Part shown: positions 10,145-27,729 of the stretch, one piece after another
How positions within the stretch are numbered: the first letter of the stretch is position 1
Layout of the letters: each line of letters opens with the position of its first letter
Virus record (IMG/VR): IMGVR_UViG_2718218309_000005
Location: 1 to 37,363 of that record
Direction: 5' to 3' (one strand)
Length of the DNA stretch: 37,363 bases
Source: a virus
Taxonomy: Duplodnaviria; Heunggongvirae; Uroviricota; Caudoviricetes
Position numbers and translations under genes: made by a program
Notes under the pieces: generated by a model
What the model saw: only the letters and a program-made list of their open reading frames with translations
Told to the model about the DNA's origin: nothing
Databases searched by the model: none

Positions 10145-10711
10145 TCAGGGGGATTCATTGATCTTATTTGCCGGAAATTTTCTATAAATGGTAGAAACGC
10201 CTACATCAAAAATCAGTGCAATACGCTGTCTTGATTCTCCGGCCTCGAGTAAACGCCCAATCTGTGCCCACTGTTCGGTGGTCAACTTAGGACGGCGTCC
10301 ACCTACTCTGCCTTTGGCACGAGCTGCAGCCAGCCCTGCCCTGGTACGTTCAACTATCAGTTCGCGTTCCATTTCAGCCAGGGCACCCATGACATGAAAA
10401 AAGAAACGGCCCATTGGGGTACTGGTATCAATACTGTCAGTCAGGCTTCTGAAATTCACACCACGCTGGCGCAACTCTTCTATCAGCGTAACAAGATGCC
10501 GCATACTGCGCCCCAACCTGTCCAGCTTCCAGACAACCAGCGTGTCTCCTGCCGATAGTGTCCTGAGTAGTTTTTTCAGCCCCGGTCTGTCGGACTTAGT
10601 GCCACTGATTTTGTCCTCAAAAATCTGCTCACATCCCGCGCAGTTCAGTGCATTACGTTGCAAATCGGTGTTCTGGTCATTTGTTGACACGCGTACATAG
10701 CCAATAAGCAT
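10145..10711 (-). CDS. serine DNA invertase (Hin/Gin/Cin/Pin family)
   Basis: N-terminus MLIGYVRVSTNDQNTDLQ with the catalytic Ser motif, plus a C-terminal HTH; lies directly outside the invertible segment. Confidence 0.85.
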   Translation of the reverse strand: MLIGYVRVSTNDQNTDLQRNALNCAGCEQIFEDKISGTKSDRPGLKKLLRTLSAGDTLVVWKLDRLGRSMRHLVTLIEELRQRGVNFRSLTDSIDTSTPMGRFFFHVMGALAEMERELIVERTRAGLAAARAKGRVGGRRPKLTTEQWAQIGRLLEAGESRQRIALIFDVGVSTIYRKFPANKINESP

Positions 10712-10738
10712 GATCATCCCCCTGAATAAAAACCGGAG

Positions 10739-11233
10739 ATGATGCCAGTTAGCTGTTACCTCTGCATTTTCTTAAACGTTGGTTTGGGAGAAGCGGCAAA
10801 ACGGAATGTGGGCAACGGGGAAAACCAAATCCCTGATATGTCTTTCTGGACGGTTACTGGTGGCAATGGAAATTTTGTGATTCGTCAACCTGACGGGCTA
10901 ATCATTCAGATGGTTACTGTAAGTATAAGCGGCCCAGTGGCGATGAATGGAATGACTGATAATGCTTATGCCATCACAGGTTCTAATAAGTCTTATATTG
11001 CCACAGCCACATTGCCCTTTGTATTTCCTAATAAGGTGCTGGGCGTTATCCCTCTGGTATCAACAACAGCCTATGGTGGTGTATCCAGTAATATTACAGG
11101 TTCATACGCGACGGCGGTTTGTTCTTTTGCCGCTGTCAGGGGGAATAATACGATTGTGTTCAAAGTCGACAAACCACTGAATGCAGCCTTTCCTTCAGAT
11201 ACCAGCGTCTCAGCGTTAATCATTGGACGGTAA
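10739..11233 (+). CDS. alternative tail-fibre C-terminal cassette (silent in this orientation)
   Basis: The ORF reads through the left crossover site (..IFLNVGLGE..) and has no plausible own start context; it would be fused to the constant H N-terminus after inversion. Confidence 0.6.
   Translation: MMPVSCYLCIFLNVGLGEAAKRNVGNGENQIPDMSFWTVTGGNGNFVIRQPDGLIIQMVTVSISGPVAMNGMTDNAYAITGSNKSYIATATLPFVFPNKVLGVIPLVSTTAYGGVSSNITGSYATAVCSFAAVRGNNTIVFKVDKPLNAAFPSDTSVSALIIGR
10767..10792. repeat. invertase crossover site, left (26 bp, hix/gix-like)
   Basis: ttttcttaaacg tt ggtttgggagaa; its right half-site ggtttgggagaa (coding G-L-G-E) is repeated in inverted orientation at 12712-12723. Confidence 0.7.
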
Positions 11234-11235
11234 GA

Positions 11236-11679
11236 ATGAACTCAGTATTCTTTTCACCCGGAAGTAAAAGTTTTTATCTGCAAGAATTGTTTCCAGAATA
11301 TGAGGATGCGGGAACGCTTCCTGATGATGTTATTGAAATTACCCGAGAAACATATGAGCAATTTCTTGGGCTGCATCCAGAAGGGAAAGAAATTGGCGCT
11401 GACAGTTCAGGACGGCCAATATGGATTAATTCCCCGCCGCCTTCAAAAGAGGATGAGGTGCTGGCGGCTGAAATGAAAAAAATATCTTTGGTTTCAGAAG
11501 TCAATACCTACATCAATACCCATCAGTGGCCTGGCAAAGCTGCTATTGGTCGTCTGAAAGGTGACGAGCTGGAACAATATAATTTATGGCTGGATTATCT
11601 GGACGCACTGGAACTGGTTGATACCTCCAGTGCTCCAGATATTGAATGGCCTACGCCTCCAGTAGTTCAGGCCAGATGA
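11236..11679 (+). CDS. alternative tail-fibre assembly chaperone (Tfa/U'-like)
   Basis: 147 aa with the C-terminal motif LDYLDALELVDTSSAPDIEWP shared with the G product; partner of the alternative fibre cassette. Confidence 0.7.
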   Translation: MNSVFFSPGSKSFYLQELFPEYEDAGTLPDDVIEITRETYEQFLGLHPEGKEIGADSSGRPIWINSPPPSKEDEVLAAEMKKISLVSEVNTYINTHQWPGKAAIGRLKGDELEQYNLWLDYLDALELVDTSSAPDIEWPTPPVVQAR

Positions 11680-15276: not shown

Positions 15277-15622
15277 TCTCTGCTCCTGTTGATACGAAAA
15301 GGGAAACAGGCACACCGTTATTACGCCGCCCGGTCAGCCCCACCACCATTGAACCGTCAAAATTGCTGTTAATGGTGATGGAATCCAGCGTCAGCCGTGG
15401 CTCCCAGCGACTCAGCGCCACATACACTGCCGACATGACCTGCAGGCGTAATGCCGGATTTTGTGGCTGGTCTATCAGTGCCGACAGCAGGGAACCATAT
15501 TCCCGACGGGCAATGCGGCTACCCTGCGGCGTCAGCAAAATGTCCCGCACCGACTGGCGCAGATGGTCAATATCAGTAATGGCTTTACCGCTGGTATTGT
15601 TCATCCCGCTATAAAGCGTCAT
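15263..15622 (-). CDS. W: baseplate wedge protein gpW
   Basis: 119 aa; P2 W-like. Confidence 0.85.
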   Translation of the reverse strand: MTLYSGMNNTSGKAITDIDHLRQSVRDILLTPQGSRIARREYGSLLSALIDQPQNPALRLQVMSAVYVALSRWEPRLTLDSITINSNFDGSMVVGLTGRRNNGVPVSLFVSTGAENGSD

Positions 15623-16197
15623 ACCGGGCCTCCGGTTGTGTCGCCGCCTTTCAGGACGCCAGTATGCTGATGTGCATCAACCACAATTCCGTTAGAACTC
15701 ATTGCACCGCCGCCCTGGGTAACACCACCATTGATCACTACTTCGCTGTTAATGCGTGTGCGGTCAGCCTCCAGTACAAACTCACTGGTTTTCATGGTGA
15801 TATTGTCGGCGGTCTCAATGACCATTGATTTGATGCCCCTGACATACCAGCGCCCGGTGGCGGGTTCGTATTCAAACCAGCCTCCGTCCGGGTATTCCGT
15901 CACGTTGCCGTCCTCAGAGCCTGAAGGTGGCGGAAACTGGTTTGAGTAGACCGCAGGCAGGGCAAACGCGGTTTCCAGATTACCGCCCAGACTCAGCAGC
16001 ACCACCTGCTCACCTTCCGATGGTCGCCACCATGTCCGGGCATTTCCTGCACGCAGCGTCAGCCAACTGATCCAGTTAGTTTCAAGGTCGCCCGTTTTCA
16101 CTCGGCAAAGCCAGTTTTCCCTGTCCACTTCGGTGACTACCCCAGTGCGGATCAGGTTGGTGATAAGGCGCATGATTTCGGTTAATTGTGCGTTCAT
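15619..16197 (-). CDS. V: baseplate spike protein gpV
   Basis: 192 aa; P2 V-like. Confidence 0.85.
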   Translation of the reverse strand: MNAQLTEIMRLITNLIRTGVVTEVDRENWLCRVKTGDLETNWISWLTLRAGNARTWWRPSEGEQVVLLSLGGNLETAFALPAVYSNQFPPPSGSEDGNVTEYPDGGWFEYEPATGRWYVRGIKSMVIETADNITMKTSEFVLEADRTRINSEVVINGGVTQGGGAMSSNGIVVDAHQHTGVLKGGDTTGGPV

Positions 16198-16242
16198 GTA
16201 AAAATGTTAAACTAAATGGAATTTCAGTCGATAACATACCGT

Positions 16243-16260
16243 TGTATGATGGATGGCACA
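16243..16260 (-). promoter_or_regulatory. candidate Ogr/B activator site (TGT-N12-ACA) of late promoter PV
   Basis: tgt atgatggatggc aca in the V upstream intergenic region. Confidence 0.45.
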
Positions 16261-16304
16261 TTACAACTGAAAATTAACGATAAATAAAATCAACGGAAAA
16301 AATA

Positions 16305-17120
16305 ATGCACTGCAGATATTGCGAACAAGATGGAATAATAGAAAGAGAACATATTATCCCTAAATTTATATATAAATATCAAAAAGAATCTGGAGATCGT
16401 TTTATAGGCTGGAACGAGAGAGCAAATGATATAATTGGTGGTGAGGCAACAATTGCCGATGTTTGTAAAACATGCAATGGTGGAGCATTAAGTTTTTTAG
16501 ATGATTATGGAAGTCAGTTTTTAGCCAGAAACGGTTTCTTAACCCAACTTTATCTAAAGACAAAAACGACTATAACTTATGATTATCATTTATTGCTACG
16601 CTGGTTAATGAAAATTTCTTACAACTCGGCAAGCGCGGTCAATGATCCATCCACACATATTTTTGGCGCATATAAAGATTATATTCTCCGCGGAGAACCT
16701 TTGCCTTCAGAAAAAGATGTCATGCTCTTCGCTGGACTGCTCATGCCTCTTAAACTTACTGACGAGCAAAAAAGCGAACTTAATATACCTACAAGTGAAG
16801 ACAACCTTTGCTCTCCCTTTAAAATGAGAATAACCAAAAATGACCCTGTTCTGTTACGCAGCGGTATTATTTTAAAAGGTATATTTTTTGGAAGCATATT
16901 TTTTTATCTCGTTATAACTGAAAAATCAGCCTTAATAAGTAAAAGTTATTTGAAAAACAAAATTATAAAGAATGAAAAAGTAAAACTTATCAATCCGTCA
17001 AGTAGCGAGATGCTTCTACCAAACTGTGGAAAAAACTGGATAACTGCAAGTGAAACCCAGCTAAAAAAAGAGATATCTAATTTAGGGATGGAGCATATCC
17101 ATAAAAAATTAAAAATATGA
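16305..17120 (+). CDS. HNH-motif protein (cargo gene, opposite strand to the late operons)
   Basis: N-terminus C-x2-C ... EHIIPK ... C-x2-C-N arrangement typical of HNH nucleases; AT-rich; ~210-aa C-terminal extension of unknown fold. Confidence 0.55.
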   Translation: MHCRYCEQDGIIEREHIIPKFIYKYQKESGDRFIGWNERANDIIGGEATIADVCKTCNGGALSFLDDYGSQFLARNGFLTQLYLKTKTTITYDYHLLLRWLMKISYNSASAVNDPSTHIFGAYKDYILRGEPLPSEKDVMLFAGLLMPLKLTDEQKSELNIPTSEDNLCSPFKMRITKNDPVLLRSGIILKGIFFGSIFFYLVITEKSALISKSYLKNKIIKNEKVKLINPSSSEMLLPNCGKNWITASETQLKKEISNLGMEHIHKKLKI

Positions 17121-17164
17121 TATTCGTTAACAACGAATAAATTAGATTAACCAAATTAGTTGGC

Positions 17165-17611
17165 TCATTTAAACAGCCACTGATGCAATATATCTCCAAT
17201 GACAGACTGCATCTTGTTATTGATACCAAGCAACCGCCGCTCTGCATAACGCACTTCCGGTCCTTTGCGACTGACGCGATCGCGCAGGCCGTAATGGTGA
17301 ACACGGGCAATACGCTGTACCTTACCTTCAAACTGCACGCTGGCAGAGTCGGCGCTGGCAGCAGTTTTCAGGTATTTTGTGGTGCGCAGCTTTGCAAACA
17401 TCTGACGTTTGATGCGCCCTTTTTTACTTCGTGCTGTTACCCGTCGCGGTTCATAGCTGCTGCCGTCAGGGTTGCGCTGCATCCTGATATTCTGCTGCTG
17501 TGTCCGGCGCAGTTCCTGCGCCAGCTGGCGCATCATGCGGCTTCTCGTGGCTGGTTCCAGATTCGCCAGCAAGGCACTCAGCCAGTCGACCACCTTCTGC
17601 AGTTCAGCCAC
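17165..17611 (-). CDS. S: tail completion protein gpS
   Basis: 148 aa; P2 S-like. Confidence 0.85.
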   Translation of the reverse strand: MAELQKVVDWLSALLANLEPATRSRMMRQLAQELRRTQQQNIRMQRNPDGSSYEPRRVTARSKKGRIKRQMFAKLRTTKYLKTAASADSASVQFEGKVQRIARVHHYGLRDRVSRKGPEVRYAERRLLGINNKMQSVIGDILHQWLFK

Positions 17612-18056
17612 GTTTCACCGTCCACATTTCTTCAGGTTCATCGGGTTCTGCTACAGCTTCAACGCTCGACACACTGCCGTCAGTACTGACCAGCACACGT
17701 TCCGTCAGTTGCAGGTTAAGGCTGATATCACAGACATCGTTGCGCAAAATATCCACCTCAAAGGTGAATAGCTTTTCCCGTAACGCCGGGTTATTGATGG
17801 CATCGGGCTGGTTATCCCGAAGCCACAGTAAAACCGGGGCCATCAGCAGATTTTGGTCGCCGCTGAAATCCTCTATCACCACGTTCAGGGTATAGCGGTA
17901 CTCCCATGACATGGAGCTGGCCCCCGTGGCAACCAGCGAACCGTTATCCACAAACAGATGCAGTTTGTCCGGGTTATTGCGGACATAAGGCACCGCTTTA
18001 TTGAGGGCGTGGCGCAGGGATTGTGGTTTGTTCACTGTTTCGCTCCTGACACGCAA
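17604..18056 (-). CDS. R: tail completion protein gpR
   Basis: 150 aa; P2 R-like; the true start may be a few codons downstream. Confidence 0.8.
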   Translation of the reverse strand: MRVRSETVNKPQSLRHALNKAVPYVRNNPDKLHLFVDNGSLVATGASSMSWEYRYTLNVVIEDFSGDQNLLMAPVLLWLRDNQPDAINNPALREKLFTFEVDILRNDVCDISLNLQLTERVLVSTDGSVSSVEAVAEPDEPEEMWTVKRG

Positions 18057-25951: not shown

Positions 25952-26956
25952 TTATTCTTCTGAATCATCATAAACATCCATTCCTTCGGTCTGATTTCTA
26001 ATATAAGAAGTCCCCATAGAATTAGCAATCGCAGTCCGAATTAACCCTACATGAGTGAAAAACACCCCTAACCTAGCACGCTTTAACTCAGACTCATCAT
26101 CATAGTCATCTTCATTACTTATAATTCTTCTAACCATTGCCTTATCTTCGTCAATAGCCGAAGGTAGCCCACTCTTTAAAGCGTCAATACACTCACCTAC
26201 AGTTATAATTTTATTTTTAATTAATTCAGAAAGCAAATCATCATAATTTTCATCATCAGATTTATTATCAGGTGGTAATTCACTTGCAGCTATCATTTTC
26301 AGCAATTCTACGTCAAGCATAGTTCCTCTATCTAGTCTGCTTGTCTCAACATACCCCTCACGCTCTGATAACACTCTTTCAAATTCGAAATCAACGACTT
26401 CAAGCAAAGCAGATACTCTATTAATTGCTCGCCTAAGAGGAAGTGGAACACTTTGCTCTTTTTTGTATTGCAGTTTATGAGATGCTGCAGCCCAAATATG
26501 CTGAGAAAGCGTTCGTATTTGCACCTCCACTTTCATATTTTTAAAATCACTAAAGGATGGAACTCTTAGCCATTCTTCTGGAGGTTGTATTACATAATGA
26601 TGAGATTGGTACCCAAATCTATCCTCATCCAGTTCATCAAGTTTATTCTCTTGCTTCAAAATAATGAAATGTTCTTTCAGACAAGATATAACCTTTTCAA
26701 CATCTCGCTTAAATAGCATTATTAATCGGATTCCAACATAATCATCCAAGTCAACTATTGACTCAATCTTTAGAGGTTTTCGGTTATCCTTATTAATAAT
26801 AGAACTTAATGTTTTGACACGGCTTTCAATTGGAACCCCTAAAGACAATTTATTCTCCGACAAAATAACATCAATTTGCTCAACCATAACTCGTCTGAAC
26901 AATTCCGCAACTGAGCCGTAAATTGAATGCTGTTCTTTTAATTCTTCGTCTGTCAT
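25952..26956 (-). CDS. RelA/SpoT-domain nucleotidyltransferase (toxSAS-like; candidate CapRel-type fused toxin-antitoxin)
   Basis: Synthetase-domain signature ..RVKTLSSIINK..RK..IVDLDDYVGIRLI..GYQSHHYVI..VEVQIRTLSQHIWAAASHKLQYK; ~140-aa acidic C-terminal extension; AT-rich; no adjacent small antitoxin ORF. Confidence 0.65.
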   Translation of the reverse strand: MTDEELKEQHSIYGSVAELFRRVMVEQIDVILSENKLSLGVPIESRVKTLSSIINKDNRKPLKIESIVDLDDYVGIRLIMLFKRDVEKVISCLKEHFIILKQENKLDELDEDRFGYQSHHYVIQPPEEWLRVPSFSDFKNMKVEVQIRTLSQHIWAAASHKLQYKKEQSVPLPLRRAINRVSALLEVVDFEFERVLSEREGYVETSRLDRGTMLDVELLKMIAASELPPDNKSDDENYDDLLSELIKNKIITVGECIDALKSGLPSAIDEDKAMVRRIISNEDDYDDESELKRARLGVFFTHVGLIRTAIANSMGTSYIRNQTEGMDVYDDSEE

Positions 26957-27296: not shown

Positions 27297-27530
27297 TTAA
27301 TGCAGCCAGCTGTCGTCTTCCCACACCTTCTGCATAATTTTCATCACTTGTTTTCTTTCTTCGTCCAGTTGCAGTCCGGTTAGTTCCACACCGTTAGAGC
27401 TACCTTTGCGAATGCGAATTACCGTTTTGGGATACAGGGGGCGCAGATTGCGGTAAAGCTCGGATTCAAGGGCGTCCAGGGTAGACTGGCTAATCTTCTG
27501 CTCTTTATCGATCATTATTTCAATGCGCAT
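27297..27530 (-). CDS. DinI-like protein
   Basis: 77 aa MRIEIMIDK...VWEDDSWLH with clear DinI-family layout; start at the internal Met of the track ORF. Confidence 0.8.
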   Translation of the reverse strand: MRIEIMIDKEQKISQSTLDALESELYRNLRPLYPKTVIRIRKGSSNGVELTGLQLDEERKQVMKIMQKVWEDDSWLH

Positions 27531-27540
27531 AAAAGTCACC

Positions 27541-27729
27541 TCAGCTGATGACATCCATTGAGCGGTTGTATTCGTGGGTTCTGATTTTTGCCATGAGTTC
27601 ATCAGTCAATTCAGAAACCCACTGCAGAGCCAGCCCCTTCTCTTCATCACTACACTCACTAGCCGCTACAAGCTTAAGAAAAAAATCAATGCGCTGGAGC
27701 TTCAAAGACTCCAAAAAATAGTCCTGCAT
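27541..27729 (-). CDS. small acidic protein, candidate SOS-induced antirepressor (Tum/Gfo-like slot)
   Basis: 62 aa from MQDYF..; strong RBS AGGAGG 4-5 nt upstream; LexA box ~45 bp upstream; function inferred from context only. Confidence 0.4.
   Translation of the reverse strand: MQDYFLESLKLQRIDFFLKLVAASECSDEEKGLALQWVSELTDELMAKIRTHEYNRSMDVIS

Follow-up and report, generated by a model that had tools for sequence, protein, structure and literature searches.

The junction between the late genes S and V is one of three moron regions of P2-like phages (PMC6823313). In phage P2 itself the junction holds orf30, which the P2 record annotates as 'nonessential' and places between the S terminator and the activator site of the late promoter pV. 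In this study we analyzed the gene that occupies the same junction in a P2-like prophage, positions 1 to 37,363 of IMG/VR virus record IMGVR_UViG_2718218309_000005 (here called the window, meaning the whole stretch of 37,363 nucleotides (nt), to which coordinates refer unless another locus is named). The gene, referred to below as the cargo gene, spans 16305..17120 on the plus strand from an ATG start through its stop codon, and encodes a protein of 271 amino acids (aa), the window protein, with HNH nuclease motifs at its N terminus. An earlier reading made from the sequence alone (the sequence-only reading) had described this open reading frame (ORF) between the minus-strand genes V and S, had placed it in the orf30 moron slot and had proposed it as a candidate defense or exclusion gene; the ORF is present exactly as described, and both the P2 annotation and the literature agree with the identity of the slot. 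Our results lead us to lean towards the view, drawn from genomic context, that the cargo gene encodes a single-gene prophage defense nuclease.

The cargo gene resembles orf30 in position, being a single gene of about 260-270 codons that lies between the end of S and the pV activator site on the strand opposite to the flanking genes. The two products differ, however, in that Orf30 has long hydrophobic stretches, contains no HNH motif and looks like a membrane protein, and Orf30 (NP_046770) was rejected as a homologue with a best BLASTP E value of 3.7. A second point of comparison is the gpA-gpQ hotspot of P2-like phages, the only such hotspot treated by Rousset et al. (2022, PMC9122126), whose cargo includes old, tin, DUF4238, DprA-PRTase and others; the window protein was not found in the text part of the supplementary tables of that paper. 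Variable AT-rich cassettes are exchanged between similar phages at gpA-gpQ as they are at S-V, and one relative of the window protein lies in the gpA-gpQ hotspot. The window gene, in contrast, is found in the S-V slot, which holds a single gene.

At the protein level, the HNH_5 family (PF14279) has been used to annotate HNH partners of ABC ATPases (PMC11464382). The window protein shares with HNH_5 two CxxC pairs, an (E/D)H dipeptide and an Asn directly after the second CxxC, and differs from it by an insertion of ~25 aa in the finger and by a helix (aa 93-111) and a domain of ~160 aa that lie outside HNH_5. With Septu PtuB and the HNH effectors partnered with ABC ATPases it has in common that it is an HNH-type protein, its own defense role being only a candidate one; unlike PtuB, its gene has no ATPase gene beside it and no PADLOC model, that of PtuB included, matches it. 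McrA, encoded by the e14 prophage, is a stand-alone Type IV HNH enzyme of ~270-280 aa; it lacks a methyltransferase partner and has a second domain that is non-catalytic. The window protein is similarly prophage-borne, stand-alone and of comparable size, whereas its HNH module is N-terminal and that of McrA is C-terminal, and no sequence or fold match to solved structures was found. Finally, phage HNH homing endonucleases such as the T4 Mob proteins and the I-HmuI type are encoded between conserved phage genes for which insert-free alleles exist, as is the case here; unlike those genes, the cargo gene shares its slot with unrelated cargos and has relatives that are widespread outside phages. 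As a prophage-borne candidate for single-gene nuclease defense in a known moron slot, the gene is of a familiar kind, and it stands among many other uncharacterized candidates for defense. What is new is a family with a split HNH finger, a conserved basic helix and a domain without a solved-structure match, and the observation that the S-V slot swaps defined one-gene cassettes which include the end of S.

The N-terminal HNH (His-Me finger) module comprises aa 1-75 (16305..16529, plus strand), as delimited by motifs, the HNH_5 alignment, invariant columns and modeled secondary structure. The motifs C3-x2-C6, E15-H16-I-I-P-K and C54-x2-C57-N58 all lie within the first 58 residues, in the HNH order that the sequence-only reading had assigned to the first ~60. 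Conservation was taken from an alignment of 65 relatives with 22-87% identity to the window protein. In this alignment E15, H16, D52, C54, C57, N58, L62, D66 and K103 are invariant, and C3 and C6 (98%) together with P19, R99, W100, N107 and R175 are conserved at 90% or more. Because the motif residues are invariant or nearly so in 65 relatives, the HNH motifs are no chance pattern; the catalytic histidine, which the earlier reading had considered might prove absent on alignment, is present as H16 in 65/65 aligned relatives.

Pfam searches with the window protein returned HNH_5 as the sole family (20.3 bits, E 5.5e-4), aligned over aa 43-67. Among the relatives, 63/65 matched HNH_5 at E<=1 and 49/65 at E<=0.01 (best E 2.6e-7), and six of the 65 matched the classic HNH family (PF01844). 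The profile search that had been suggested did therefore recover HNH_5, in the window protein below the family threshold, and nearly all of the relatives matched it at E<=1. In the AlphaFold model the module is built from a strand at 12-16 that carries E15-H16, a strand at 49-54 and helices at 55-59 and 61-75. A ~25-aa insertion loop (aa 21-46), which is poorly conserved and has a predicted local distance difference test score (pLDDT) of about 60, splits the finger, and for this reason HNH_5 aligns on the second half of the motif only. By the standard layout of His-Me fingers, a superfamily classified in PMC5714182, the two CxxC pairs are predicted to hold a structural zinc, the (E/D)H to supply the general base and the Asn to act as a metal ligand. 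Judged by its motif and its relatives, the window protein appears to be HNH_5-like at the superfamily level, with no curated family call.

A second conserved block follows the HNH module. The helix at aa 93-111 (16581..16637, plus strand; helix 94-111 in the model), with the consensus DY..LLRW..K.SYNSAR, is conserved as strongly as the catalytic blocks: the mean frequency of the top residue in the 65 sequences is 0.71 in the helix, 0.66 over aa 1-20, 0.60 over aa 47-75 and 0.23-0.33 over aa 112-271. R99, W100, K103 and N107 are spaced three to four residues apart and are therefore expected to lie on one face of the helix; position 110 is Arg in 91% of relatives and Ser in the window protein. 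We infer that this helix may contact nucleic acid, acting together with the HNH site. The isoelectric point (pI) of the HNH module is 5.2, and that of the remainder of the protein (aa 76-271) is 9.4.

The variable C-terminal region, aa 112-271 (16638..17117, plus strand), is delimited by the model and the alignment and is predicted to form an alpha/beta domain without a known family or fold. The AlphaFold2 model, built from 11 sequences, has a predicted template modeling score (pTM) of 0.86 and a mean pLDDT of 81.5. Structure prediction of the C-terminal domain, proposed as a check by the sequence-only reading, thus yielded a confident model and no match to a solved structure. A sequence search of the PDB with the single protein returned only a chance match to frataxin (E 1.3), and a search with the 65-sequence profile returned nothing at E<=10. 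The ~200 aa after the HNH module matched no Pfam, NCBIfam or PADLOC family. For the window protein NCBIfam gave nothing, and PHROGs gave three weak matches to families of unknown function. The earlier description of this part as an unknown domain of ~210 aa with a hydrophobic stretch holds insofar as no known family was found and the stretch, GIFFGSIFFYLVI (aa 192-204), is real. In the model, however, the stretch is a beta-hairpin (strands 188-195 and 198-205) predicted to be buried in the core of the fold, not a membrane segment; a transmembrane helix at this position was considered and rejected on the same ground.

A word-indexed search of 5.8 billion proteins found 11 clusters only. When 1.84 billion cluster representatives were searched exhaustively with the profile, 858 relatives were found at E<=0.001, of which 594 reached E<=1e-10 and 155 reached E<=1e-30. 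Most of the profile matches listed are 255-280 aa long and aligned nearly over their full length. Because the relatives match in this way, the two-part architecture belongs to a conserved family and is no one-off fusion. The relatives occur in several phyla and amount to ~860 clusters at 50% identity, and those whose names were checked are called hypothetical, except for one UniRef entry ('HNH endonuclease 5 domain-containing protein') and one plasmid copy ('HNH endonuclease'). The window protein itself differs from E. coli WP_001748178.1 only by K87Q and is annotated 'hypothetical protein' by every source; its protein cluster has 93 members, and all named members that were read are hypothetical. 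At the nucleotide level, the window is 99.9% identical over the cargo region to E. coli EA7 (NZ_CP069709).

Comparison with the 87%-identical allele in the P2-like prophage L007 gave a ratio of nonsynonymous to synonymous substitution rates (dN/dS) of 0.10 (dS 0.65, dN 0.068), and region by region the ratio is 0.22 (aa 1-75), 0.09 (aa 76-135) and 0.07 (aa 136-271). Five other E. coli-type copies were examined; they differ by 1-4 nt, and each has an intact ORF. By these comparisons the cargo gene is a real gene under purifying selection.

The composition of the gene sets it apart from its surroundings. Sliding-window GC content is 0.29-0.39 over 16150-17200 and 0.51-0.61 on both sides. The insert had been described as AT-rich, and it is: the cargo gene has a GC content of 0.336 (0.276 at third codon positions), compared with 0.553 for V and 0.546 for S. 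On the left the slot is flanked by V (15619..16197, minus strand), the first gene of the V late operon, encoding the baseplate spike protein gpV (PF04717, 5e-18; PF18946 Apex, 6.7e-6). On the right it is flanked by S (17165..17611, minus strand), the last gene of the upstream late operon, encoding the tail completion or virion morphogenesis protein gpS (PF05069, 6.8e-41). The cargo gene is alone in the slot, with no methyltransferase, ATPase or antitoxin partner.

Pairwise blastn against a prophage with an empty slot, L002, defined the unit that is exchanged. Similarity is lost at 16197, the V start codon, and returns at 17219, within S; the corresponding empty junction in L002 is an S-V intergenic region of 68 base pairs (bp). 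The exchangeable AT-rich cassette (16198..17218) therefore consists of the cargo gene, the upstream region of pV and the last ~18 codons of S. These codons (17168-17221 here) form a variable C-terminal tail that differs with every cargo after a conserved ...AERRLLG (L002, L038-L043), which places the recombination boundary of the cassette inside a structural gene. No direct or inverted repeats that could serve as attachment sites or transposon ends flank the cassette, the only matches being short, AT-rich and of the kind expected by chance, and Rfam returned no match.

The slot is variable in content. The S/V flanks occur in 1,036 of 5,426 complete E. coli genomes, and the cargo gene is found in only nine of these. 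To survey slot contents, we took 60 records spread over the 1,042 E. coli records that matched: about 30 had an empty junction, 17 carried a different single gene of ~0.8-1.0 kb, and 12 matched on one flank only, so that about a third of the records with both flanks hold cargo. The comparison of P2-like prophages for presence or absence of the insert, as the sequence-only reading had proposed, thus revealed a variable insert and many empty junctions. The possibility it had raised, that the gene is a conserved tail or assembly component of these phages, does not fit with a gene present in nine of ~1,036 flank-bearing E. coli genomes or with junctions that are commonly empty. The alternative cargos are annotated as TIR, DUF6216 (the BL21 allele), FRG, DUF2971, DUF5677 or hypothetical proteins. 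Of six that were fetched, all have a GC content of 0.32-0.37 and the same cassette boundaries, and five lie on the strand opposite to S and V, as here; the TIR gene is co-oriented. Three of the six have PADLOC matches: FRG to PDC-S15 (8.5e-32), DUF2971 to PDC-S31 (2e-24), and the TIR cargo, weakly, to PDC-S66 and SpbK. Together these results demonstrate that the S-V slot is a true exchange hotspot for one-gene cassettes and that its content is partly defense-like.

Some of these loci had features of their own. The DUF6216 cargo occupies the S-V slot of BL21(DE3), Rosetta2 and several other strains and has no PADLOC match; in L039 (strain 500111) it is 268 aa long and converges with S, the 3' ends of the two genes overlapping. 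In a clinical E. coli (L044, NZ_CP157327, 1581-2278), IS1 has inserted between the nuclease gene and S and has left the nuclease ORF intact; the annotated length of S there is 438 nt. Prophage remnants (L047, 3168-3884; L002, 87-1797; and L037) have internal deletions that fuse a truncated V to gene D or to the tape-measure gene, and all three keep the S-V junction. Since L047 and L037 retain the nuclease gene, the cargo persists in defective prophages.

A pattern search identified a TGT-N12-ACA dyad, TGTATGATGGATGGCACA (16243..16260), within the cassette, centered 54 bp upstream of the V start codon and 44 bp from the cargo ATG. The dyad stands 54-55 bp from the V ATG in L004, in L007 and in the empty-slot prophage L002, and six variants with other cargos have it at a comparable offset from V; each alternative cargo has its own spacer inside the TGT-N12-ACA pattern. 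The P2 record annotates the pV activator-binding site at the equivalent position. The established Ogr/Delta late-activator site of P2 has a TGT-N12-ACA consensus at -55, and the dyad in the window is the predicted Ogr/Delta-type activator site of the pV promoter.

The cargo gene has counterparts at the same site. In other P2-like phages we found relatives in the same slot and orientation with 87% (L007), 52% (L050), 46% (L004), 45% (L052/L053) and 44% (L051) identity, and an allele with 38% identity in the S-V slot of a degraded prophage (L037). At least seven diverged relatives thus occupy the S-V slot of P2-like phages. The divergence of the nuclease does not follow that of its flanks: in L050 the nuclease has 52% identity to the window protein while V has 86% and J 91%, and in L007 the nuclease has 87% while V has 82% and S 80%. 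This discordance argues for repeated swapping of cassettes and not for simple vertical descent.

Relatives outside the slot are found on several kinds of mobile element. One lies between gpA and ogr/portal Q in an Aeromonas P2-like prophage that also carries DarTG. Another has QatABCD and a large reverse transcriptase on one side and DUF2971 and DUF4238 on the other, in an island where a BrxL fragment and an integrase are also found, and a third adjoins TIR_2, PIN7 and integrase genes. Further examples are the first cargo gene of a Tn7-like transposon that also holds GmrSD_N, an Eco57I-type methyltransferase, HicAB and a HEPN protein; a gene next to a dCTP deaminase and an integrase in Brenneria; a gene next to a reverse transcriptase on a short contig; a Tn5053-like cargo on a Citrobacter plasmid; and a gene in an integrase-bearing island on an E. 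coli IncF plasmid. The GC content of the gene is below that of its surroundings in 25/27 loci, by up to 28 points. One further relative (P0018; L058, 8001-13099) directly follows a P4-type integrase and has Peptidase_M78, Beta_protein and P4 cII genes downstream. This locus resembles the psu-int defense hotspot of P4-like satellites with a gop-beta-cII-like module.

The reading of the cargo gene as a single-gene prophage defense nuclease is strengthened because the other cargos of the slot and the neighbors of the relatives include defense-type genes. This guilt by association is suggestive and not quantitative. We propose that transcription would start in the upstream region of the gene itself and run antisense to the late operons, which are silent in a prophage, so that the lysogen would have the enzyme at hand. 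A signal peculiar to an infecting phage could be bound or sensed by the conserved helix together with the variable, basic C-terminal region; the C-terminal region may recognize a feature of that phage or of its DNA, or it may restrain the enzyme until infection occurs. H16 would then act as the general base, with E15 and N58 (perhaps also D66) holding the metal, and DNA would be cut. Superinfecting phages would be blocked either by the destruction of their DNA or by abortive infection.

Several results weigh against this proposal, for which our preference is a modest one. The 107 bp of DNA between the cargo gene and V give the gene the upstream region of its own that had been claimed for it, and a consensus scan of these 107 bp found no sigma-70 promoter. 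The HNH_5 match of the window protein (20.3 bits) does not reach the gathering threshold of that family, 27.5 bits. Against PADLOC-DB 2.0 the window protein has no match at E<=1, and the 65 relatives have two marginal single matches only, to PDC-M01B (0.0027) and PDC-M14A (0.0053). Six chromosomal relatives (in Pseudidiomarina, Shewanella, Ottowia, Undibacterium, Ralstonia and Polaromonas) have mostly housekeeping neighbors; these loci come from species-representative genomes, and their 62 neighbors within 5 kb, counted without a matched background control, include, besides one clear Shedu gene (2e-61), a few that match candidate models weakly. A tblastn search of 50,697 deposited phage genomes found no relative, and no description of the window protein was found in the open-access literature, although a mention in a supplementary table is possible. 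Lastly, a nuclease family that recurs at a single phage site is also what homing endonucleases would produce. The proposal that the gene serves defense or exclusion thus gained support from the cargos of the slot and the contexts of the relatives, and found none in defense models; for the chromosomal relatives it is weakened by their mostly housekeeping surroundings.

A wider reading joins the protein to its site, and we advance it with less assurance. Here the window protein would be the first member to be noticed of an unrecognized, widespread family of single-protein immune nucleases (~860 clusters) that combine an HNH finger, a conserved basic helix and a fast-evolving sensor or specificity domain, and the S-V junction would be a third, largely unmined hotspot for one-gene defense systems. 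As part of the same tentative reading, exchange of the cassette would drag along the last ~18 codons of S and the spacer of the pV activator site.

The main rival is that the gene encodes a free-standing HNH homing endonuclease, a selfish gene whose product would cut an empty S-V junction in related P2-like phages during co-infection and which would be copied into it, with the adjacent end of S, by recombinational repair. The HNH motif in a single AT-rich gene between conserved phage genes, for which insert-free alleles exist, is what such an element would look like, and at least seven P2-like lineages have diverged members of the family at exactly this site, oriented alike. Furthermore, the last ~18 codons of S travel with the insert like a co-conversion tract, and the L007 nuclease is more conserved than V and S of that prophage, which suggests lateral movement between phages. 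The same boundaries, however, are used by cargos that are not annotated as nucleases (TIR, FRG, DUF2971, DUF6216 and DUF5677), each with its own S tail. Because unrelated cargos do so, exchange of the cassette needs no such nuclease. The relatives are, moreover, not confined to one site, being found also at gpA/ogr-portal, as cargo of Tn7-like and Tn5053-like transposons, in defense islands, on plasmids and in the chromosomes of several phyla. No NUMOD, IENR1, AP2 or helix-turn-helix module was detected in the window protein or in the 65 relatives with Pfam, even at E<=1, and a frequency at the site of ~1% in E. coli is low for an efficient homing element. We consider homing an unlikely account of the gene.

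Alternatively, the nuclease could serve the lytic growth of the phage or its competition with other elements, by degrading host DNA, by attacking a satellite in the same cell (P4, for example) or a rival prophage upon induction, or by counter-defense. Phages carry HNH nucleases for purposes of their own. The gene is phage-borne and adjoins the late promoter pV, with the activator dyad 44 bp from its start codon, and no sigma-70 consensus promoter that would set its timing was found upstream. The distance from the dyad to V is fixed (54-55 bp), in contrast to that from the dyad to the cargo ATG, for which three phages gave about 50, 54 and 61 bp. A single bidirectional late promoter for both genes is made less likely by this difference, and a dyad serving both was rejected. 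In addition, many relatives reside in non-phage elements and defense islands, where a role in the phage life cycle would make no sense, and ~99% of related prophages lack the gene. A lytic function therefore appears improbable.

A sub-case of the defense reading makes the protein a modification-dependent Type IV restriction enzyme of the McrA kind, in which the C-terminal domain would read a modified base and the HNH module would cut, leaving host DNA without the modification unharmed. This would suit a stand-alone HNH protein with no cognate methyltransferase in its cassette and a basic non-catalytic domain (pI 9.4), and one relative lies beside GmrSD_N and Eco57I-type methyltransferase genes in a Tn7-like cargo. 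No recognizable modified-base reader (SRA, PUA-like or McrA N-terminal domain) was found, however, and as a specific form of defense we regard this as a minor possibility. The view that the ORF is a decaying or functionless passenger in AT-rich filler, which its annotation as hypothetical, its sub-threshold Pfam score and the lack of a detected promoter might suggest, is effectively refuted by the data on selection and conservation (dN/dS 0.10 with dS 0.65, an ORF intact in all copies examined, 858 relative clusters at E<=0.001 with invariant catalytic residues, and a confident predicted fold, pTM 0.86) and is highly improbable.

The remaining features of the region are the following. The cargo gene and S end convergently, their stops separated by a spacer of 44 bp (17121..17164) that contains two weak, AT-rich hairpins. 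The scan that was used for promoters found no intrinsic terminator 3' of the cargo gene, and folding of the spacer is not significant (z = -1.7 on both strands; 13 of 200 shuffled sequences fold at least as well). Upstream of S, gene R (17604-18056, minus strand) encodes gpR (PF06891, 4e-47).

Elsewhere in the prophage, the position between portal Q and gene A holds a minus-strand ORF of 334 aa (25952-26956) with a RelA/SpoT nucleotidyltransferase domain (PF04607, 7.5e-20), which also matches the PADLOC candidate PDC-S33 (1.8e-16). This ORF, presumably comparable to CapRel, may be a defense gene of the toxic small-alarmone-synthetase type. In the near-identical prophage of EA7, a TIR-domain gene and a hypothetical gene are found at the Q-A position instead. 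Between the RelA/SpoT-like cargo and gene A lies a DinI-like gene (27297-27602, minus strand; PF06183, 1.3e-22); DinI is among the arrangements of the P2 gpA-gpQ hotspot in the supplementary tables of Rousset et al. (2022, PMC9122126). The replication gene A (27883-30298, minus strand) apparently consists of two overlapping ORFs, 29180-30298 (372 aa) and 27883-29220 (445 aa), the latter of which matches positions 174-321 of the Phage_GPA profile. Gene A spans 2416 nt, compared with 2415 nt for the intact gene in EA7, which looks like a frameshift of 1 nt; the split looks like the mark of either a prophage unable to replicate or a sequencing error. Additionally, a minus-strand gene of the recombinase family (invertase type) lies beside two plus-strand ORFs at 10145-11679, just before the main tail-fiber genes. 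In EA7 the first of these ORFs is annotated as hypothetical and the second as a tail-fiber assembly protein. This arrangement suggests an invertible host-range segment in the prophage.

The consequences differ between the readings. Were the gene a homing endonuclease, temperate phages would be seen to carry HNH homing enzymes of a new class. If the cargo gene is a defense nuclease, it would add to the anti-phage repertoire a compact single-protein system of 271 aa with a previously unseen sensor or specificity domain, and a family of ~860 clusters whose members, as far as checked, are now called hypothetical or generic HNH endonucleases would become annotatable. The S-V slot of P2-like prophages would then be a practical place to mine for one-gene systems, and it would offer a clean natural experiment on cassette swapping, with boundaries in a structural gene and at a late-promoter element.

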